A DNA stretch of 64,000 nt. Origin: Labilithrix sp. GTDB taxonomy: Bacteria > Myxococcota_A > Polyangia > Polyangiales > Polyangiaceae. The DNA is taken from NCBI GenBank assembly GCA_019637155.1, contig JAHBWE010000017.1, positions 147,627 to 211,626 of the forward strand, in the 5' to 3' direction. The number at the start of each line of letters is the position of its first letter. Position 1 is the first letter of the stretch. A program made the translations under genes and the position numbers. Shown one piece after another: positions 21,973 to 59,580 of the stretch. Below the pieces are notes generated by a model. It did no database searches. It was not told where the DNA came from and saw nothing but the letters and a program-made list of their open reading frames with translations.

Positions 21973-22794
21973 TCAAGGCAACCTCGCCTGGACGGCGAGG
22001 CCACCGGGCAGCGGCACGAGGACCGCTTGCGCGCGCGCGGCGGAGAAGGACGGCCAGAGGAAGGCGGCGAGTGCCATGGAGACGACGCCGGCGCCGGCGA
22101 GGACGCCGGACGTCCACCAGAGCGTCTTGATCGTCGTGACGTCCGAAGCGGCGCACGACGGCGCGCAGGTGTCGCGCAGGTCCGCGCGCTGCAGATGCCC
22201 CATCGTCGTGAGCACGCCCGCGGTCGCGAGGAGCCCGATCCCCGCCGCGCCGAGCGCGAGCGAAGGCGTCCGACTGGGCCGCTCCACCGGCGGCCGCGCC
22301 GGCGGCGGCGCGGGCAGATCGATCAACGCGGCGACGAGACGATCATGCTCCGCCGGCTTCAGCGTCAGCCGCACCTCCTCCGAGGTGGAGTCGCCTCGCT
22401 CGAAACGAAAGACGTGATCGCCCGGCTCGAGCGTCATCGCCTCGGCGGGGACGACCGCCGCGATCTTCGTTCCATCCATCACGACGCTCGCGTCGATGAC
22501 GGGACGACCTCGTCGATCGCGCAAGCTGAAACGCACCGTCGGCATGAGCGCGTCGATCTCGTGGAGCCAGGCCTTGCAGTCCTTCGTCAGCGCGGCCGGG
22601 CACGTCTCGAGACAGGTCTCGAGGTCGGCGCGCGCGGCGACGATGTCGCCGTCGCGCTTCGTCCGCTGCGCACCTTCATACGAGGCCTTGCATCGCGCCT
22701 TGTTGCTCTCCGCGCTCGCGATCCCGGAGAACGACGCGATCCCGGAGAACGAGACCAGGACGAGCAACGCCGTGCACGATCGGTTGCGGCTCAC
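21973..22794 (-). CDS. Secreted/membrane protein with PEGA-like domain
   Basis: The GTG start overlaps the TGA of the upstream sigma54 activator (GAGTGAGC). Signal peptide: CTALLVLVSFSGIASFSGIASA, containing an 18-bp tandem duplication. PEGA-like block: VVMDGTKIAAVVPAEAMTLEPGDHVFRFERGDSTSEEVRL. Two C-terminal TM helices. Confidence 0.55.
   Translation of the reverse strand: MSRNRSCTALLVLVSFSGIASFSGIASAESNKARCKASYEGAQRTKRDGDIVAARADLETCLETCPAALTKDCKAWLHEIDALMPTVRFSLRDRRGRPVIDASVVMDGTKIAAVVPAEAMTLEPGDHVFRFERGDSTSEEVRLTLKPAEHDRLVAALIDLPAPPPARPPVERPSRTPSLALGAAGIGLLATAGVLTTMGHLQRADLRDTCAPSCAASDVTTIKTLWWTSGVLAGAGVVSMALAAFLWPSFSAARAQAVLVPLPGGLAVQARLP
22718..22753. repeat. 18-bp tandem duplication (17/18 identical) inside the signal-peptide coding region
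   Basis: gcgatcccggagaacgac / gcgatcccggagaacgag, encoding SFSGIA-SFSGIA on the minus strand. Confidence 0.8.
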
Positions 22795-30173: not shown

Positions 30174-30839
30174 TCAGCCCGCGGTGACGCGACCGTCCCC
30201 GCCGAGGTCGATCGGCGCGCCGCCGTGGCGCGGCACGCGGCGCCTCGTGACGTCGACGAACGCCTTCGTCCGCGAGACGACCTCACGCGCGTGGAGCCAC
30301 GCGATGCCGCGGTAGAGATGGCGATCGGAGGCCGCTCCTTCCGCCTCCATCCCGAGCGCGCGACTGCACCAGACCGCACGCGAGAGGTGGAACTGCTGCG
30401 TGACGACGATGAGCTTGCGCGCCCCGAACACGTGCTTCGCGCGCCAGACCGAGCTGTACGTGTCGAGGCCGGCGTGGTCCATGAAGATGTCGGCCGGCGG
30501 GACGCCCTTCGCCTCGAGGTAGCGCCGCATCGCGTTCGGCTCGTCGTACACCGCGGTCCGGTGATCGCCGCTGACCAGGATCTTCCGCACGCGACCCGCG
30601 CGATAGAGCGCGAGCGACTCGTCCAACCGATCGCGCAGCACGTCCGACGGTCTCCCGTCCCGCACCGCCGCGCCGAGCACGAGCGCGATCTCTACGTCAG
30701 GGGTTTCGCCCCAGACACGGCCCGCCCGCTTCTGGGGCCCCTCGGTCCTGCCGCCGGTGAGGACGATGAGGTTCGTGGCGAGGACGGCGGCCGCTACGAG
30801 GAGGATGGCGGTATAGAGACGGCGGGAGCGCACGACCAT
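30174..30839 (-). CDS. SanA/YdcF (DUF218) family protein
   Basis: N-terminal TM helix, then DVEIALVLGAAVRDGRPSDVLRDRLDESLALYRAGRVRKILVSGDHR, a typical DUF218 signature. Confidence 0.8.
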   Translation of the reverse strand: MVVRSRRLYTAILLVAAAVLATNLIVLTGGRTEGPQKRAGRVWGETPDVEIALVLGAAVRDGRPSDVLRDRLDESLALYRAGRVRKILVSGDHRTAVYDEPNAMRRYLEAKGVPPADIFMDHAGLDTYSSVWRAKHVFGARKLIVVTQQFHLSRAVWCSRALGMEAEGAASDRHLYRGIAWLHAREVVSRTKAFVDVTRRRVPRHGGAPIDLGGDGRVTAG

Positions 30840-38125: not shown

Positions 38126-39016
38126 ATGCCCGGAGAAGAGGCTCGCGCCCGCGAAATCGTCACGCGTTTGAGCGCTGGAACAGCGACCTCGGACGAGGTC
38201 TTCGCCGCGTTCGAGGAGCTCGACCGACTCCCGGCGGAGGTCGTCCGTCAGGCCCTCGAGCCGTGGACCGGCCCCGCGCCGGACGTCGAGCGCCTCGACG
38301 ACACGATGCGGCGCCTCCATCGTCTCCCGCCGCGCACGCCCGCGCTCGAGACGCTCGCCTCCGTCCGCGACGCCGACGTCCTCGATCTCGGGCCCGTCGC
38401 GGAGGCGCAGCTCCGCATCGCGGGGAAGACGTGGGACGGGCAAGACCTCGAGCCGGAGGAGCGCCTCGACGGCGAGCGCGACGACTCGTTCGCCGGCACG
38501 CTGGAGCGCCGCGTCCTCGGCGAGGGCGGCCGTCCGCTCTTCGACGTCATGCTCTTCGGCGAAGGCTCCGGCGTCATCTTCGCCGCCGATCGCACCGACG
38601 TCGCCGGCGTCCTGGTCGACCACCGCGTCGAGATGCGCGACCGCGCCGCGCGCACCGCGCTGGAGCAAGCGCTCACACGCGCCCCGTCGATCCCGGCGCC
38701 CGTCTCGGTCTCCGAGGCGATCACGCTCCGCCGCCCGACCACCCAGCTCGAGCTCGAGCTAACGCCAACCCCCGAGCCCGAGCCCGAGCCTGAGCCTGAG
38801 CCTACGGCGAAGCCTAAGAAGAAGGCCGCAGCCGCACCGAAGAAGAAGGCGACGACCGCCAAGAAGAAGACCGCCGCAGCCGCCGCACCGAAGAAGAAGA
38901 CGAAGGCCGCCGCGGAGGCGGAAGCGGAGGCTGCGCCCCCCGCGAAGAAGAAGGCGGCGGCGAAGAAGACGACCGCCAAGAAGAAGACGAGCGCGAAGAA
39001 GAAGGCCGCGGACTGA
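38126..39016 (+). CDS. Hypothetical protein with C-terminal histone-H1-like Lys/Ala-rich tail
   Basis: The N-terminal ~200 aa are of unknown function, then PEPEPEPEPEP, then AKPKKKAAAAPKKKATTAKKKTAAAAAPKKKTKAAA...AKKKTSAKKKAAD. Confidence 0.65.
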   Translation: MPGEEARAREIVTRLSAGTATSDEVFAAFEELDRLPAEVVRQALEPWTGPAPDVERLDDTMRRLHRLPPRTPALETLASVRDADVLDLGPVAEAQLRIAGKTWDGQDLEPEERLDGERDDSFAGTLERRVLGEGGRPLFDVMLFGEGSGVIFAADRTDVAGVLVDHRVEMRDRAARTALEQALTRAPSIPAPVSVSEAITLRRPTTQLELELTPTPEPEPEPEPEPTAKPKKKAAAAPKKKATTAKKKTAAAAAPKKKTKAAAEAEAEAAPPAKKKAAAKKTTAKKKTSAKKKAAD

Positions 39017-39090
39017 TCCTCGCGGCGCCGGAGGGCCGCGGGCTTTGCGCCCTCGTGGCGTCGCGGAGCTGCGGCCCTGTGCACCTTCAA

Positions 39091-39203
39091 CTGCGAGCCC
39101 GAACCCAAACCTGCGCGCGGCCCTCGTACCTCCCACCGCGAGCCCAACCCCAAACCTGCGCGCGTCCCTCGTGCCTTCCACCGCGGGCCGAAACCTTGCG
39201 CGG
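39091..39203. repeat. Roughly 46-bp imperfect tandem direct repeat (about 2.5 copies) in an intergenic region
   Basis: ctgcgagcccgaacccaaacctgcgcgcggccctcgtacctcccac / cgcgagcccaaccccaaacctgcgcgcgtccctcgtgccttccac / cgcgggccgaaaccttgcgcgg. Confidence 0.6.
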
Positions 39204-49294: not shown

Positions 49295-49972
49295 CTAGGG
49301 CGCGGGCGGAGCGAAAATCACCGGGTAGACCACCACCACGACGCCGCCCTCCGGCTGCGGAAAGCTGAGGTTGGCGAAGCCGCGCAGCACGCACGACTGG
49401 ACCGCCTTGTCGGGGAGGTCGGTCACCGGATCGATCGTCGGGTTCGTCACCGCTCCGCTCCCGTCGATCGTGAGCTTCACCGCGATGCGCCCGGCGAGGT
49501 TGGGGTTCGAGCGGAGCCCGTTCTCGTAGCAGAGACGGAAGCGCCCGAAGTTCTGGCGCACGATGCGCTGGATGACCTCCGGCGGAAGCCGGCCCGTGAC
49601 CGTGACCGCGCCGTGGCGAAGCGTGGGCGCCTTCGTGTTCGATGGAACGGGGCCGCCCGAGCCGGTGCCGGGGATGCCGGGGTCGAGCGACGACGACGAC
49701 GATGAAGGCGCGGCTCCGCTCGACGAGTCGACGAAACCTCCCGGCGACGGCGGCGTGCAGAGCGGATCGCCGTGCGGGCACGGCAGCGCGCGCGGCTCGG
49801 CCGTCGGCTCGGGTGCGGGTGCGGGCGGCGGCGTTGACGGTGATGGTGCGGGCGATGGTGCGGGCGCGGGGGCGGGGGCGTTCGACGGCGGGACCACGAC
49901 GGCGGGCGGCGGCGGATCGCTCGCGCACGCGGCGAGGGCGGAGAGGAAGAAGGAGAGGCGCGGCGACGGCAT
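49295..49972 (-). CDS. Lipoprotein with AgmX/PglI C-terminal (TonB-C-like) domain
   Basis: Lipobox: LSFFLSALAAC. Pro/Ala/Ser-rich linker. LPPEVIQRIVRQNFGRFRLCYENGLRSNPNLAGRIAVKLTIDGSGAVTNP...VQSCVLRGF is about 70% identical to the domain in gene 1067..5857. I trimmed the start to the ATG at 49972. Confidence 0.75.
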   Translation of the reverse strand: MPSPRLSFFLSALAACASDPPPPAVVVPPSNAPAPAPAPSPAPSPSTPPPAPAPEPTAEPRALPCPHGDPLCTPPSPGGFVDSSSGAAPSSSSSSLDPGIPGTGSGGPVPSNTKAPTLRHGAVTVTGRLPPEVIQRIVRQNFGRFRLCYENGLRSNPNLAGRIAVKLTIDGSGAVTNPTIDPVTDLPDKAVQSCVLRGFANLSFPQPEGGVVVVVYPVIFAPPAP

Positions 49973-54935: not shown

Positions 54936-56567
54936 TCACTCCTGGAACGCGGTCACGATGCGCCCCACCGCGTCGCGCGAGACCGGGCGCTCGAGGATGC
55001 GCGGCCGGCGGCTCGGCGGAGCGGACGGCGGCATCGCGTCGGGTCCGACGATGAGCACGGTGCGGCTCTTCAGCGCCGGCTGGAGCCGCCAGAGGACGCG
55101 GTAGAACGGCTCGCCTTCGCCGCGCATCGAGGCGCTCACGACCAGGACGTCGACCGCGCGCGTCACCACGTGCTCGAACGCCTCCATCGTCGTCGACGCG
55201 AGCGCGATGTCGGCGTGCGGATGCGCCGCCGACGCGGAGAAGAGGATCTTCGTCGACGTGTCGTCGTCCACCACGAGCACGGCGAGGCGGCGGTACGCGA
55301 CCTTCCGCGCCTTCGACGGCGGGCCCTCCGTCGCGGCGGCAGAGACGTCGGCGACGGCCACCTGCGCCGCGGCCGGTGGATACGCGCGCACGACGACGCG
55401 TCGGACCGCGGCCTGCTCGAGCGGCAGCGCGAGGACGGGGCTCTCGCGGCCGATCTTCGCGAGCTCCTCCGCGACGAAGGCGGCGTCGAGCGCGGGGACG
55501 AGCACGACGACGCGATCGGCCGCGAGCATGTCGATACGCGCGAGCGACGCGAGGAACCCGGTCGGATGGAGCGCCGACGACGCGCTGCACACGACGAGAT
55601 GGAATCGCTCCGCGAGCACACGCTCCGCCGCGTCGTCCGCCGCCGCGACGAGGAGCTCGCCCGCGGCGCCGCCGAGCGGCTCGCGAAAGGCGCGCACCTG
55701 CTCGGCGTCGAGATCGACGAAGAGAACGCGAAGCGACTCGTCCACCGTGGCAATCGCAGCGACACGCCGCAACGGCGCCGCCGCTACTGCGGCCGCGGGC
55801 GGCGCGGGCGGGGCCGACGCCGCGGGGGGCGCGGGCGGCGCGGGCGAGGCCGATGAGGTCGTCGCGACGAGCGCGAGGACGCGCTGACGGAGGCGCCAGC
55901 GCAAGAGCGGTCGCTCGAGGATGCGCTCGGTGCCCTGGAGTCGCCATCGCGCGTCGACCAGCTGCGCGCGCGCCGCGACGACGAGCACGCGCTGCGCCGT
56001 CTCGATCGGCAGCGCGGCGAGGAGCCCGTGCTCGCCGAAGGCACGCCCCGCGTCGCAGAGGATCGCGTCGAACGGCCTCGCGCGCGCGAGCCCCACCGCG
56101 GTGAGCACGTCGGAGCAGGTCGCCGGCTCGACGTCGAACACCTCGCGCACGGCCCACAGATCGCGCTCGGTGCCGTCGACGATCAGAAGCTCGAGGGCGC
56201 GCCTGCTCGGCGTGGCCACGCGTTCGGACGACGGCGCCGCGAAGACGAACGGCGGCGCGAGGTCGAACGGCGGGGCTGGCGGAACGCGGGCGCGCGCGCT
56301 CTGGCGATCGGCGTGCGACAGGACCAGCGGCCGGAGACGACCGATCAGCCCCGGCGGCGCGTCGTCATGGAAGAGGAGAATGCGCTCGCACTCGGCGTGC
56401 GTGACGACACGCAGGAGCGCGTAGTGCGCCGACGCGAGGACGCGCGTGCTCTGTTCGACGTGAACGACGAAGTCGAGCGGGACCCGGCCCGGCTCGACCG
56501 CATAGACCCCGCGTACCCCCGCGACCGACTCGAGGACGAACGCGACGTCCATCTGGCGCGGGGTCAT
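54936..56567 (-). CDS. Multi-receiver-like domain protein (several degenerate REC folds)
   Basis: Repeated blocks of the form (I/L/V)4-D...L...A...PFD/V(V/I)L(C/V)D, for example LELLIVDGTERD...PFDAILCDAG and LAVLVVDDDTST...VDVLVVSASM. I trimmed the start to the ATG at 56567. Confidence 0.6.
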   Translation of the reverse strand: MTPRQMDVAFVLESVAGVRGVYAVEPGRVPLDFVVHVEQSTRVLASAHYALLRVVTHAECERILLFHDDAPPGLIGRLRPLVLSHADRQSARARVPPAPPFDLAPPFVFAAPSSERVATPSRRALELLIVDGTERDLWAVREVFDVEPATCSDVLTAVGLARARPFDAILCDAGRAFGEHGLLAALPIETAQRVLVVAARAQLVDARWRLQGTERILERPLLRWRLRQRVLALVATTSSASPAPPAPPAASAPPAPPAAAVAAAPLRRVAAIATVDESLRVLFVDLDAEQVRAFREPLGGAAGELLVAAADDAAERVLAERFHLVVCSASSALHPTGFLASLARIDMLAADRVVVLVPALDAAFVAEELAKIGRESPVLALPLEQAAVRRVVVRAYPPAAAQVAVADVSAAATEGPPSKARKVAYRRLAVLVVDDDTSTKILFSASAAHPHADIALASTTMEAFEHVVTRAVDVLVVSASMRGEGEPFYRVLWRLQPALKSRTVLIVGPDAMPPSAPPSRRPRILERPVSRDAVGRIVTAFQE

Positions 56568-56686: not shown

Positions 56687-58564
56687 ATGCTCGAGGCGGT
56701 CGACGAAGCCGAGGCGGTCCGCATCCTCGCGGCCGAGTCGGGCGACGAGGGGGACCTCGCCGACGTCGCCGCGCTCCTCGGCCGCGAGCGCGCGGTGCTC
56801 ACGTGGGCCGGCGGCCTCGCGCGCACGATCGGCTGGGGCCCGCTCCGCCCCCGCCTCGTCGGATGGACGCTGCCCGACGCGCGCTTGCCGTGGCGCGACG
56901 AGGTCGACGACGCGATCGCCGCGCTCTCGCCCGAAGACGCCGCCCTCCTCTCCACCCTCGCCGCGTGCGACGCGCCCTTCGCGTGGGACGTGCTCGAGTC
57001 CGTCGCGCCCGACACGTCGATCGAGAGCATCTGCCGGCTCGAAGGCGCGCGCCTCGTCACCCGCACGACACGCGCTGGCGTCGTCACGCTCGCCGTCCCC
57101 TACTCGGTCCGCGCGTTCCATCACGTCGACGCGAGCCGTACGCCTGCCCCGGACGCAGCAGACCGATGGCTCGACGCGTGGATCCGGCGCGCGATCGAGC
57201 TCCGGCCCGCGAGCTACGGCCCTCGTTCACGCGCGACGCTGGCCGAGCTCGCCGCCGCCATCCCGCTCGCGACGCGCGCGCTCTTCGCCGACGCGCCCGA
57301 GACACGCGCCCGCGGCCTCACGCTCTGGAACGCCGCCTCCGACGCCCTCTTCTTCGCCGACGCCCTCCCCTTCGACGCCCCCGCCTTCACCCGCGCCATC
57401 GAAGTCGCCGACGCCCTCACCGCCAACACCATGACCGCCGACGACGACACGATCGCGCCACCGGGGCCCCAGAAGCGGCCGCACCAGCGGTCGCGCAGCG
57501 ACCCGCCGTCTCCGGCGGGCCGTGTCTGGGGTGGGGGTGGCGGGGGCAACGCCCCCGACGTTGACCGTGTCTGGGGTGGGGGTGGCGGGGGCAACGCCCC
57601 CGACGTTGAGAGCCTGCGCGCGCGGCTCGTCGCGGGGCGCGCGATGCTCGAGCGCGGAGAGCCCGCCGCCGCGAAGGCGCTCGTCGCGGAGGCGATGGCG
57701 CTCGCGACGTCGGACGTGCTCGGCGCCGAGGCGCTGCGCGGGGCGGGCTGGGCGGCGCTCGCGCTCACCGACTTCGACGCCGCCCGCGCGGCGTTCGAAG
57801 AGGCCCGCCGCCTCACGGCCGACGATCCGCGCGGTCAGGCCGACGCCGCGGCGGGGCTCGGGATCCACGCGCTCCTCGGCGGCGAGCCCGACGCCGCGCG
57901 CGCGCTCCTGGAAGAGGCGGTCGCGATCCACGTCGTCATGCGCGACGCGCCGCGCGAAGGAGCGGTCCGCGGGATGATGGAGCTCTTGCCCGACGCGCGC
58001 GACGACGCCGCCGACAGCGTCCGGCTCGGGGCGCAGGTCGCCGAGTTCCGCGCGAGCGGGCAGCGCTGGCGTGAGGCGCTCGCCCTCGCCCGGCTCGCGA
58101 TCGCGGCGCGCGCGCGCGGCGACGCCGAGGCCGAACGGAAGCGGCTCCTCGAAGCACGCGCCGCCGCGATGGTGTCGCGGATGCCGGCCTCCACCGTCGT
58201 GCGCGCGATCGTCGAGGCGAGCGAGGCGAGCACCGCCGCGCGGCCGATCGTGGTCGGGCACGACGGACGGAACCTCACCCTGCCGTCGGGCGAGGTGCAC
58301 GACCTCGCGCGTCACGGCCCCGTGCGCCGCGTCTTGTGGGCGCTCGCCGTCGCGCGGACGGAGCGCCCCGGCGCCGCCATCTCCACCCTCGACATGATCG
58401 AGGCGGGCTGGCCCGGCGAGAAGATGCAGCACGAGGCGGCCACGCTGCGCGTCTACACGACGATCCGCCGTCTCCGCGCGCTCGGCCTCTCCGACGCGCT
58501 CGTCACGCGCGACGAAGGCTACCTCATCGATCCCGACGTACCGCTCGCGCTCGCCACCTCCTAG
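56687..58564 (+). CDS. Regulator with TPR-like helical (BTAD-like) region and C-terminal OmpR/PhoB-type winged-helix DNA-binding domain (SARP-like, inverted order)
   Basis: C-terminus: VRRVLWALAVAR...LRVYTTIRRLRALGLSDALVTRDEGYLID, the winged-helix signature. The central region is Ala/Leu-rich and TPR-like. It contains a perfect 45-bp tandem duplication. Confidence 0.6.
   Translation: MLEAVDEAEAVRILAAESGDEGDLADVAALLGRERAVLTWAGGLARTIGWGPLRPRLVGWTLPDARLPWRDEVDDAIAALSPEDAALLSTLAACDAPFAWDVLESVAPDTSIESICRLEGARLVTRTTRAGVVTLAVPYSVRAFHHVDASRTPAPDAADRWLDAWIRRAIELRPASYGPRSRATLAELAAAIPLATRALFADAPETRARGLTLWNAASDALFFADALPFDAPAFTRAIEVADALTANTMTADDDTIAPPGPQKRPHQRSRSDPPSPAGRVWGGGGGGNAPDVDRVWGGGGGGNAPDVESLRARLVAGRAMLERGEPAAAKALVAEAMALATSDVLGAEALRGAGWAALALTDFDAARAAFEEARRLTADDPRGQADAAAGLGIHALLGGEPDAARALLEEAVAIHVVMRDAPREGAVRGMMELLPDARDDAADSVRLGAQVAEFRASGQRWREALALARLAIAARARGDAEAERKRLLEARAAAMVSRMPASTVVRAIVEASEASTAARPIVVGHDGRNLTLPSGEVHDLARHGPVRRVLWALAVARTERPGAAISTLDMIEAGWPGEKMQHEAATLRVYTTIRRLRALGLSDALVTRDEGYLIDPDVPLALATS
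57520..57609 (+). repeat. Perfect 45-bp tandem duplication with G-tracts (GGGGTGGGGGTGGCGGGGG, two copies)
   Basis: ccgtgtctggggtgggggtggcgggggcaacgcccccgacgttga repeated exactly, encoding RVWGGGGGGNAPDV(D/E) twice. Confidence 0.9.
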
Positions 58565-58617: not shown

Positions 58618-59580
58618 ATGCAGAGCGCGCTCATCGCCGGCGCCGGCGCCTCCGGGTTCCTCCACGCCCTCGCGCTCCGCTCGGCCGGCGTCCGCATCGC
58701 GGCCGTCTTCGATCCCGACCGCGCGAGCGCACGGAACCTCGTCGAGCTCGTCGGCGGTGAGCCGTGCACCTCGCTCGATCGAGCGCTCCGTCACGACGCC
58801 GCGATCGCCGCGGTGTGCAGCCCCCCGATCCACCACGTCGCGCAAGCCGCCGCGCTCGCCGACGGGCGCCGCCTCGTCTTCGTCGAGAAGCCGGTCGCGC
58901 TCTCGAACGAGGAGCTCGAGCGTCTGCGGACGCTGCCGCGCGTCGTGCCGATCGTGCAGTGGCGATCGGGGCGGAGCGCGTCGGAGCTGCGCGCCGCGAT
59001 CGAGGCCGGCGTGTTCGGCGCGCGACCGCGCATCCACTGCGAGCTCCGGCTCTGGCGCGACGCCGCCTACTTCGCGCGCCGCGACGCCGCGCGCTGGGGC
59101 TGCGGCGCGATGCTGTCGATCGGCATTCACGCGCTCGACCTCGTGCTCTGGATCGCGAACCGCCGCGTCGTCGCGTCGCGCGGGCGCGAAGGGTTCGGCC
59201 GCCCTACGATCGACGTCGCGACCGCGGGCGAGATCGCGCTCGAGCTCGAGGGCGGCGCGTCGGCGCGGGTCGCGATCACGCTCGACGAGCCGCGCGCGTG
59301 CGACGTGCGCCTCGCGGTCGAAGGCGACGGCACGACCGCCTACCTCCACGCGGCGGAGGCGGACCCGACCGGCACGCCGCTCTCGTGGCGCGGCCCGCGC
59401 GCGGTCCGCTACCCCGCCCCCGCCGGCGCGCTCGGGAGCCCGCTCCTCGTGCCGTTCATCCACGAGGCGCTCGCCGCGCCGAGGCCGCTCGCGATCGACG
59501 ACGTCGCCGCCGCGCACCGGCTCGTGTTCGCGCTCACTTCCCGGTCAGCGCCGACAGACCTTTGCCGCCGACCGGCGTGA
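58618..59580 (+). CDS. Gfo/Idh/MocA family oxidoreductase
   Basis: MQSALIAGAGASGFLHALALRSAGVRIAAVFD is the Rossmann N-terminus; EKP is the Gfo/Idh/MocA motif. Confidence 0.8.
   Translation: MQSALIAGAGASGFLHALALRSAGVRIAAVFDPDRASARNLVELVGGEPCTSLDRALRHDAAIAAVCSPPIHHVAQAAALADGRRLVFVEKPVALSNEELERLRTLPRVVPIVQWRSGRSASELRAAIEAGVFGARPRIHCELRLWRDAAYFARRDAARWGCGAMLSIGIHALDLVLWIANRRVVASRGREGFGRPTIDVATAGEIALELEGGASARVAITLDEPRACDVRLAVEGDGTTAYLHAAEADPTGTPLSWRGPRAVRYPAPAGALGSPLLVPFIHEALAAPRPLAIDDVAAAHRLVFALTSRSAPTDLCRRPA

Follow-up and report, generated by a model that had tools for sequence, protein, structure and literature searches.

Tandem repeats lying in frame within bacterial genes are well documented, the 24-bp spa and 81-bp coa repeats of Staphylococcus aureus among them. 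Short repeats can also become inserted in frame into genes, as is the case for the Rickettsia palindromic elements, and short templated insertions arise through template switching or microhomology-mediated events, both of the FoSTeS/MMBIR type and as quasi-palindrome templated mutation. The locus considered here lies in a 64-kb stretch of DNA (64,000 nucleotides, hereafter the window) from a metagenome-assembled genome (MAG) of Labilithrix sp., and can be set against each of these systems. With two head-to-tail copies of a unit whose length is a multiple of three, inside a coding sequence, it belongs with the in-frame intragenic repeats of the VNTR type. It shares with the spa and coa repeats this arrangement, the location in a low-complexity or disordered segment and the expectation of copy-number instability; it differs from them in having just two copies with no observed polymorphism, in being part of a cytoplasmic regulator where those belong to surface proteins, and in the lack of microhomology at its junction. 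As with the Rickettsia palindromic elements, one short sequence occurs within two unrelated genes, in frame and at tolerated positions that are specific to the lineage; here, however, the shared patch is only about 50 nt long, is present in only two copies, has no clear palindromic architecture and is at most a candidate for dispersal. The events of the FoSTeS/MMBIR type would find a parallel in the putative copying of a short patch from a neighbouring locus, 27 kb off and in opposite orientation, with local duplications to follow.

The repeat itself consists of identical 45-mers, CCGTGTCTGGGGTGGGGGTGGCGGGGGCAACGCCCCCGACGTTGA, placed head to tail at positions 57520-57564 and 57565-57609 of the forward strand. 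Tandem Repeats Finder describes it with a period of 45, 2.0 copies, 100% matches and a score of 180, which is the top score in the window, confirming as genuine the exact duplication reported in an earlier note on this DNA. None of 100 dinucleotide shuffles gave a match to the unit at up to 3 mismatches, so the repeat is not a product of chance, and no further copies occur in the window at the same tolerance. The array comprises exactly 2.0 copies: the preceding base is G while the last base of the unit is A, and the following base is G while the first base of the unit is C, which leaves neither a partial third copy nor any microhomology at the junction. Position 57520 is the last base of its codon, and the units are read cgt gtc tgg ... 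in the frame starting at 57521. Each unit amounts to fifteen codons reading RVWGGGGGGNAPDV(D/E), and the two copies together span residues 279-308 of the 625-aa product, the first encoding RVWGGGGGGNAPDVD (residues 279-293) and the second RVWGGGGGGNAPDVE (residues 294-308). The codon phase thus upholds the proposal that the duplication added a second 15-residue unit in frame.

The unit draws on codons that are rare in its host gene. GGT occurs twice per unit and once in all of the remaining gene, GTT is used in the unit and nowhere in the remainder, and the unit falls on the rare side of the arginine choice (CGT 5 times against 44 for CGC); GC3 is 0.73 in the unit against 0.94 in the gene (P=0.011). 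These features fit a young coding sequence. The duplication had been called very recent, and the identity of its copies is indeed what a young event would leave, but identity could also reflect maintenance by conversion rather than youth.

The host gene occupies positions 56687-58564 of the forward strand, and its 625-aa product is identical to the NCBI entries MBX3232199.1 and MCW5813164.1 ('hypothetical protein KIT84_19210', MAG Labilithrix sp.). An N-terminal helical and winged-helix region (residues ~1-251) is followed by a linker, by TPR-like repeats (~304-513) and by a C-terminal winged helix of the OmpR/PhoB type (~520-622). The linker, delimited by alignment and the AlphaFold2 model at residues 244-310 (57416-57616, forward strand), is 67 aa long here and about 8 aa in the homologues, a net gain of 59 aa in an alignment of 37 homologues, all 37 of which lack the insertion while sharing 53-71% identity with the window protein. 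The AlphaFold2 model has a mean pLDDT of 83.7, which falls below 50 at about residues 266-301 (266-290 and 296-301); its helices stop at residue 251 and restart at 304, with no secondary structure over 252-291, and the linker is accordingly predicted to be disordered. The alignment and the model agree with the placement of the repeat between the N-terminal and TPR regions given in the earlier note. The 90%-identity cluster of the host protein is headed by an unrelated 47-aa sequence, a database artefact of no biological meaning. A gene for a Gfo/Idh/MocA-family oxidoreductase lies downstream (58618-59580, forward strand) and also follows the regulator homologue at four related MAG loci (L001, L002, L003 and L008), so that it is likely to be an operon partner or a target of the regulator.

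The gene had been labelled SARP-like, a designation that its domain order does not bear out. In the SARP family, the OmpR-type winged-helix DNA-binding (ODB) domain is N-terminal with the BTA/BTAD domain directly after it, and the large SARP AfsR has the architecture ODB-BTA-NOD-TPR (PMC10936776). The host protein reverses this order, with its winged helix after the TPRs; the protein ends there, and no domain fills the position that BTA takes in SARPs. Pfam gave no match to Trans_reg_C, BTAD, NB-ARC or AAA at E<=1, and a motif search of the protein found no Walker A, GxxxxGK[ST] or GK[ST], hence no P-loop NOD was detected. The winged helix is visible by fold only, through Foldseek on the domain model, where it resembles ToxR, BaeR, ArlR, AdeR, AfsR, PhoB and OmpR (E 4e-3 to 1e-1, TM 0.45-0.61); Pfam, a PDB profile search and hhalign did not detect it by sequence, hhalign reaching just E 0.06 against PhoB. 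What the protein does have in common with SARP/AfsR is the fold of the winged helix (AfsR chain 8hvr_I, TM 0.61), the TPR repeats and a STAND relationship, whereas it comes from a myxobacterial lineage and SARPs are actinobacterial. The TPR assignment is supported by weak Pfam matches to TPR_16, TPR_2 and TPR_12, all under the gathering score, by helical repeats across residues 304-513 of the AlphaFold2 model, and by Foldseek matches that include LGN, designed TPR proteins and 6mfv, the top match of the whole model being 6mfv_A. The TPR and C-terminal winged-helix part also aligns with an NB-ARC/NACHT-TPR protein (P0043, BLASTP E 4e-15), a distant relative that does carry NB-ARC/NACHT. In this the host resembles the STAND NTPase-TPR proteins (NB-ARC/NACHT with TPR, MalT-like; PDB 6mfv), but it is without their NTPase domain and Walker A, and its N-terminal 250 aa appear to retain only the helical and winged-helix parts. 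The gene belongs to an uncharacterised, STAND-derived family of Polyangia and has NB-ARC-TPR-wHTH proteins as its relatives; the regulator opens with a STAND-like region that lacks a P-loop and continues through the TPR repeats to the OmpR-type winged helix at its C-terminus.

A second peculiarity of the linker is that about 52 nt of it (GPQKR..AGRVWG..PDVE) recur in the same reading frame about 27 kb away. The other copy, GGGGCCCCAGAAGCGGGCGGGCCGTGTCTGGGGCGAAACCCCTGACGTAGAG = GPQKRAGRVWGETPDVE, occupies positions 30690-30741 of the reverse strand in a ydcF/sanA-like (DUF218) gene (30174-30839, reverse strand), where it sits between an N-terminal hydrophobic segment, presumed to be a membrane helix, and the DUF218 domain. 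In the linker, the left part of the patch spans 57463-57531 (forward strand) and includes an exact 16-mer (57463-57478) and an exact 18-mer (57514-57531), with some 35 additional nt, PHQRSRSDPPSP, between them; the ydcF-like gene has both contiguous (33 nt, GGGGCCCCAGAAGCGGGCGGGCCGTGTCTGGGG). The right part, CAACGCCCCCGACGTTGA(G), is the weaker one and is found on the forward strand at 57547-57564 and again at 57592-57610, and identity is uneven along the patch, with 33/33 nt on the left and then 13/19. Compared with the ydcF-like copy, the regulator patch further contains a clean insertion of 15 G-rich nt, TGGGGGTGGCGGGGG, which shows the G cluster to be a local expansion too. Orthologues are without the patch at either site, making it lineage-specific in both genes, and codon usage is atypical in both copies.

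BLAST E-values of 4e-4 for the 18-mer and 6e-3 for the 16-mer are too optimistic, as 3% of control segments have an exact match of at least 18 nt in a window of 72% GC. The significance of the patch rests instead on the contiguous 33-nt pair, against which the best comparable match among 829 control segments of the window is 28 nt. A lenient gapped local alignment had too noisy a background (top score 74, controls up to 60) to count as evidence. The residues 'GP' and 'VE' of the closest YdcF orthologue at the patch edges hint at the ydcF-like gene as donor, a hint countered by the loss of the near-invariant ADC motif at the patch in the ydcF-like gene of the window; a third donor locus is possible.

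How could such a linker have come about? We favour, as a reasonably probable account, a recent in-frame tandem duplication of 15 codons in a disordered, lineage-specific linker of a Polyangia-type regulator, the linker having grown stepwise as a patchwork and the duplication being probably near-neutral. The patch of about 50 nt in common with the ydcF/sanA-like gene (GPQKR-AGRVWG-..PDVE) would have come first, followed by the gain of the roughly 35 nt that now stand between the two exact matches. Reiteration of a TGGGG(G) block would then have produced the G-tract cluster, GGGGTGGGGGTGGCGGGGG, which encodes six glycines (57528-57546 in copy 1 and 57573-57591 in copy 2, forward strand), and finally the 45-bp unit would have been copied once. 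Both the order of these events and their neutrality are what we infer from the present-day arrangement. Each unit contains a perfect hairpin with a 7-bp stem and a 3-nt loop, CGGGGGC-AAC-GCCCCCG (57541-57557 in copy 1 and 57586-57602 in copy 2, forward strand), whose 5' arm is the last G-run of the cluster. A search of the window with the hairpin core returned a single 3-mismatch match, taken as chance. The most likely cause of the final step would be polymerase stalling, with template switching or realignment, at this stable GC hairpin and G-run; we infer the participation of the hairpin and G-runs, and the folding energy of the region is not significantly better than that of shuffles (57490-57625, both strands; z -0.9 and -1.7). 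The earlier note had invoked replication slippage, but simple slipped-strand mispairing is not indicated, since a junction without microhomology makes classic slippage between flanking direct repeats less likely. The additional 15 residues would lengthen a flexible tether, probably at close to neutral cost. Tandem 45-mers can contract or expand, and the locus is for this reason expected to be unstable in length, with no on/off switch. Overall, we are most likely dealing with an ordinary duplication of recent date in a linker that grows fast, with the short-patch copying between two unrelated genes a minor curiosity.

A broader possibility, which we put forward as no more than speculative, is that a previously undescribed patch, about 50 nt long, is propagated in frame among unrelated genes of this Labilithrix lineage, entering their interdomain linkers either as a mini-element or by recurrent template-switch copying, and seeds G-rich, hairpin-containing repeats that expand on their own; the 45-bp duplication would then be a snapshot of the de novo growth of a disordered linker. 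In its narrower form, which we think improbable, the GPQKR-AGRVWG-PDVE patch would be a short selfish repeat that, like the Rickettsia palindromic elements, inserts itself into coding sequence, here into linkers, with the 45-bp unit as its expandable core. The presence of two copies within 64 kb, in unrelated genes and the same reading frame, both in interdomain linkers at sites that lack the patch in all sampled orthologues and both with atypical codon usage, is consistent with such an element, as are the short palindromes GGGGCCCC and GGGG-N5-CCCC or CGGGGGC-AAC-GCCCCCG. Yet these are the only two copies known, with none elsewhere in the window, at 13 related loci, in two metagenome scans (0 matches for the unit core and 0 for a gapped pattern spanning both patch versions) or among plasmids (blastn). 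A profile search of the MAG proteome was uninformative: it gave 13 candidates, none with a score, and missed even the proteins of the window. Neither terminal inverted repeats nor a target-site duplication are seen, and the uneven identity of the two copies also speaks against an element. A candidate inverted duplication in the linker (25 nt, 76% complementary; 57456-57480 and 57518-57542) was rejected for lack of significance, its score being reached in 40% of shuffles and by 38% of real pieces of the window.

The true genome might instead have a single 45-bp unit, the second being created by assembly or polishing at a site that is rich in G and can form a hairpin. Sequencing through G-runs and hairpins is difficult, the source is a MAG, and searches of genome, metagenome and protein collections brought up neither another allele nor an independent sequence. 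However, the same 625-aa product stands under the two NCBI accessions on two contigs, the longest of 2.5 Mb, even if these records may not be independent assemblies. The array lies in the middle of its contig (2.5 Mb in the source record) and not at an assembly end, and the duplicate is exactly 45 bp long, keeps the frame and is free of homopolymer errors. The older local expansions nearby, the 15-nt G block and the roughly 35 nt that the ydcF-like patch lacks, further show that such events have a real history at this site. An artefact thus seems unlikely to us.

A functional role of length variation is a comparably slim prospect. The number of units would vary between cells or strains in a contingency-like fashion and tune the coupling of the N-terminal domain to the TPR and DNA-binding parts. 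Contraction and expansion independent of RecA are an intrinsic tendency of perfect tandem 45-mers, as known from studies of tandem-repeat deletion in E. coli, and the unit is situated in a tether between domains, the length of which could matter; variability of copy number between strains is plausible on such general grounds. Against a functional role stand the presence of only two copies, the predicted disorder of the linker and its absence from the 37 homologues, which implies that it is dispensable for the function of the family. The phase variation suggested in the earlier note lacks support, because a unit of 45 bp, or 15 codons, located inside the ORF far from its start cannot shift the frame by changing in number. 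No polymorphism is observed, either: protein, genome and metagenome collections yielded no alternative alleles, the two database records being identical, and in a look-up for the same species the exact-protein contig query came back empty while relatives in the genome collection reach at most 61% identity.

The G-tracts had also been described as a strong quadruplex (G4) motif with four or more G-runs per copy. The string GGGG-T-GGGGG-T-GG-C-GGGGG is indeed present, but its runs of 4, 5, 2 and 5 G make four only if the GG is counted, three of them having at least three G, and 'strong motif' overstates the case. A regular expression for the canonical pattern (four runs of at least three G, loops of 1-7 nt) has no match in 57501-57630; the pattern matches only when loops of up to 12 nt are allowed, borrowing an upstream GGG for copy 1. 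G4Hunter, for which 1.2 in a 25-nt window is the standard threshold in surveys of bacterial genomes (PMC6539912), reaches its highest value in the window at 57522, with a 25-nt score of 2.4, although 25-nt windows at 49854-49892 also score at least 2.0, and such sites are thus not unique at 72% GC. ViennaRNA with its G-quadruplex option places one quadruplex in each unit, but just a two-layer one; the last G5 run is perfectly paired in the 7-bp hairpin, which would compete with a quadruplex, and the G cluster is simply six glycine codons from local expansion. Even with six runs of at least four G within 64 nt (57528-57591) after the duplication, we find it very improbable that a G4 on the coding (non-template) strand and in the mRNA modulates transcription or translation, with the duplication doubling the element.

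The duplication as such matters little, as in-frame duplications in disordered linkers are common and mostly amount to neutral changes of length, and the ideas of a G4 and of phase variation are not backed by the sequence. For the family, the corrected label places the gene outside the SARPs, in a group conserved beside a Gfo/Idh/MocA oxidoreductase gene and in which the linker is otherwise short and constant in length. Against this background, the locus is a clean example of the stepwise building of a linker through a shared patch, the expansion of a G-run and a 45-bp duplication. That two unrelated genes, 27 kb from each other, both carry the patch in frame points, for a myxobacterial genome, to either the ectopic copying of short patches or a small element inserted in frame.

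The perfect 45-bp duplication described in the earlier note is borne out: two identical 45-mers lie head-to-tail at 57520-57564 and 57565-57609. Tandem Repeats Finder assigns it a period of 45, 2.0 copies, 100% matches and a score of 180, the top array in the 64-kb window, and dinucleotide shuffles of the window yielded no match to the unit at three or fewer mismatches. The array comprises exactly two copies, since the bases on both flanks break off the repeat and leave neither a partial third copy nor microhomology at the junction. With 57520 falling on a third codon position and each unit spanning 15 codons, the units are read as RVWGGGGGGNAPDVD and RVWGGGGGGNAPDVE, residues 279-308 of the 625-aa product of the regulator gene (56687-58564, forward strand). 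GC content in this ORF is 0.94, 0.79 and 0.57 at third, first and second codon positions, respectively; in the frame used, GC3 is 0.73 in the unit against 0.94 both in the rest of the gene and in the non-repeated linker. Four of the 15 codons of the unit end in A or T (P=0.011). GGT occurs twice per unit and once in the entire rest of the gene, GTT is present in the unit and nowhere else in the gene, and CGT, also in the unit, is rare elsewhere. Such codon usage would fit a sequence that has been coding in its present frame only briefly.

Other tandem repeats occur in the window. A second array of 45-bp period (39071-39195; 2.8 copies, 82% matches), unrelated in sequence to the unit, lies just downstream of a gene (38126-39016) for a protein with a histone-H1-like tail rich in Lys, Ala and Pro; the coding sequence of that tail consists in turn of 24-27-bp repeats (38816-38913). 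A perfect 18 bp x 2 duplication, CGCGATCCCGGAGAACGA, is found at 22717-22752; none of the overlapping ORFs of at least 120 aa has clearly coding-like GC3 (0.62-0.68).

The regulator product is identical to MBX3232199.1 / MCW5813164.1 of NCBI ('hypothetical protein KIT84_19210', MAG Labilithrix sp.), on record from two contigs, the longest of 2.5 Mb. Pfam yields only TPR matches, all below threshold, and an NCBIfam search of the protein gave no match. The protein search lists about 39 full-length homologues of 536-612 aa from metagenomes and Polyangia MAGs, Labilithrix among them, and eight homologue loci were recovered from MAG genomes. The 90%-identity cluster of the protein is headed by an unrelated 47-aa sequence, a database artefact rather than biology, which is why the protein is missing as its own match in the homologue search. 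More distant relatives are NB-ARC/NACHT/AAA proteins with TPRs; P0043 (899 aa), for instance, aligns with residues 322-618 (E 4e-15), its C-terminal end being the same domain as that of the regulator. An AlphaFold2 model built from a 38-sequence alignment (mean pLDDT 83.7) comprises a helical N-terminal region with a beta-hairpin (~1-251), an unstructured stretch, paired helices (304-513) and a beta-sheet/three-helix/beta-hairpin domain (520-622). The STAND-TPR protein 6mfv is the top PDB match to the whole model, followed by many TPR proteins, and Apaf-1 matches across ~270 columns. Modelled alone (pLDDT 86), the C-terminal domain matches almost exclusively OmpR/PhoB-type winged-helix domains, including those of ToxR, BaeR, ArlR, AdeR, AfsR, PhoB, OmpR and CadC. 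The scores are modest (E 4e-3 to 1e-1, TM 0.45-0.61), and sequence methods did not detect this winged helix.

The earlier designation of the gene as SARP-like describes a loose resemblance rather than membership. In SARPs, by definition, a BTA domain comes after an N-terminal OmpR-type domain, and in AfsR the NOD and TPR regions are placed after both (PMC10936776), whereas the domain order is reversed in the regulator, in which BTA and NTPase domains were not detected. The protein has no Walker A motif. Its family, found in Polyangia and so far uncharacterised, has the look of an offshoot of STAND-TPR-wHTH proteins that lacks the P-loop. Directly 3' of the regulator lies a Gfo/Idh/MocA oxidoreductase gene (58618-59580, forward strand); such a gene also follows the homologue in four related MAG loci (L001, L002, L003 and L008), an arrangement suggestive of a conserved pair, be it regulator and target or partners in an operon. 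The divergent gene on the other side (54936-56552, minus strand) encodes a 538-aa product whose sole match is a weak Response_reg (E 0.004); its 9-bp repeat array (GCGGCGCGG x 6.3, 55789-55846) encodes an Ala/Pro-rich stretch and thus marks another locally expanding linker.

Both the alignment and the model place the duplication, as first described, in the linker joining the N-terminal and TPR-like regions. Between the conserved 'VADA' and 'RARLVAG', the window protein has 67 residues against about 8 in 37/37 homologues of the 38-sequence alignment; the linker as a whole (residues 244-310, bases 57416-57616, forward strand) is therefore a net gain of 59 aa specific to this lineage, to which the duplication contributes 15. 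The model has no secondary structure between residues 252 and 291, and its pLDDT is below 50 at residues 266-290 and 296-301.

Unexpectedly, a short-word BLAST comparison of the linker with the rest of the window returned a pair of exact matches (16 and 18 nt) adjoining at 30709-30741 on the minus strand. They fall within a YdcF/SanA-family gene (30174-30839, minus strand; DUF218, E 8e-27), in a 52-nt patch (30690-30741, minus strand) that reads in gene direction GGGGCCCCAGAAGCGG|GCGGGCCGTGTCTGGGG|CGAAACCCCTGACGTAGAG = GPQKRAGRVWGETPDVE. The linker holds all three pieces in unchanged order and frame, with ~35 extra nt (PHQRSRSDPPSP) parting the first from the second and a 15-nt G-rich block (TGGGGGTGGCGGGGG) before the third; the third piece matches at 13/19 nt, the left part being an exact contiguous 33 nt. 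At 72% GC, an exact 18-mer by itself is no rarity in the window (3% of control segments have such matches). We therefore used a stricter statistic, namely a pair of exact matches that adjoin in one sequence but are parted by a clean indel in the other, for which the observed 33 nt compares with a maximum of 28 nt among 829 control segments. In the YdcF/SanA-family gene the patch lies between an N-terminal hydrophobic segment, presumed to be a membrane helix, and the DUF218 domain. The 21 aligned orthologues, Labilithrix luteola and another Labilithrix MAG included, carry a shorter 'G..x..ADC' stretch, relative to which the protein encoded in the window has 9 additional aa, its near-invariant ADC lost or replaced. 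Judged from this alignment, the patch is lineage-specific here too.

The G-tracts of the unit had been described as a strong G-quadruplex motif. The duplication is G4-capable by one predictor, the 25-nt G4Hunter score reaching 2.4, the window maximum, where bacterial-genome surveys use a threshold of 1.2 (PMC6539912); 'strong' does not hold, as the G runs of each unit are 4, 5, 2 and 5 long and none of the four sites in the window matching the canonical G3+N1-7 x4 expression falls inside the units. If loops may extend to 12 nt, copy 1 alone qualifies, using an upstream GGG. ViennaRNA with the quadruplex option predicts only a two-layer quadruplex adjoining a hairpin, CGGGGGC-AAC-GCCCCCG, with a perfect 7-bp stem and a 3-nt loop; its 5' arm is the last G5 run, for which it would compete with the quadruplex. 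Comparison with the patch in the YdcF/SanA-family gene shows the G cluster to be a local 15-nt expansion encoding glycines. Nothing among the sequence features examined points to selection on a G4, and there is no positive evidence for a G4 regulatory element. The sole other site in the window with a 25-nt G4Hunter score of at least 2.0 is 49854-49892 (GGGCGCGGGGGCGGGGGCG...). One of the four canonical motifs (57363-57392, minus strand) is found in the template strand of the regulator gene, where it precedes the repeat by ~130 bp and comes directly ahead of the linker insertion.

What could be the origin of the duplication? The linker appears to have grown stepwise: the patch would have come first, extra inserts would then have enlarged it, TGGGG(G) would have been reiterated, and the 45-bp copy would have been made last. 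The earlier note proposed replication slippage; in its simple form, with flanking repeats mispairing, this finds no indication here because the junction lacks microhomology. More likely, synthesis stalled at the GC hairpin or the G runs and then switched template or realigned, which would have produced the second copy; end-joining is a less likely alternative. An assembly artefact is also less likely, given that the identical product stands in two database records, that the second copy is exact and in frame, and that real local expansions mark the history of the site. No positive evidence favours a functional variable linker, and the 15 added residues are probably near-neutral, as they lengthen a disordered tether wholly missing from the rest of the family. 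Tandem 45-bp copies free of mismatches should gain and lose units at appreciable rates, which makes strain-level length variation plausible; a 15-codon unit, by contrast with the phase variation once suggested, is unable to serve as a frame-shifting switch. The earlier observation is thus confirmed and its interpretation supported in part: the duplication is an ordinary, recent, in-frame event inside a fast-evolving disordered linker.

The most interesting alternative is that the patch is a dispersed in-frame mini-element, although this reading rests on two copies; searches of the window, 13 related loci, the metagenome collection (two scans) and plasmids brought up no others. Copying may have run in either direction between the two genes, or from a third donor locus. 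Two unrelated genes, which lie 27 kb from each other on opposite strands, each carry one copy of a ~52-nt patch in frame within an interdomain linker, and no sampled orthologue of either has a counterpart. While the interest of the finding stays modest, it is unusual for unrelated genes to have such a patch in common, and a count across the genome would be worthwhile.
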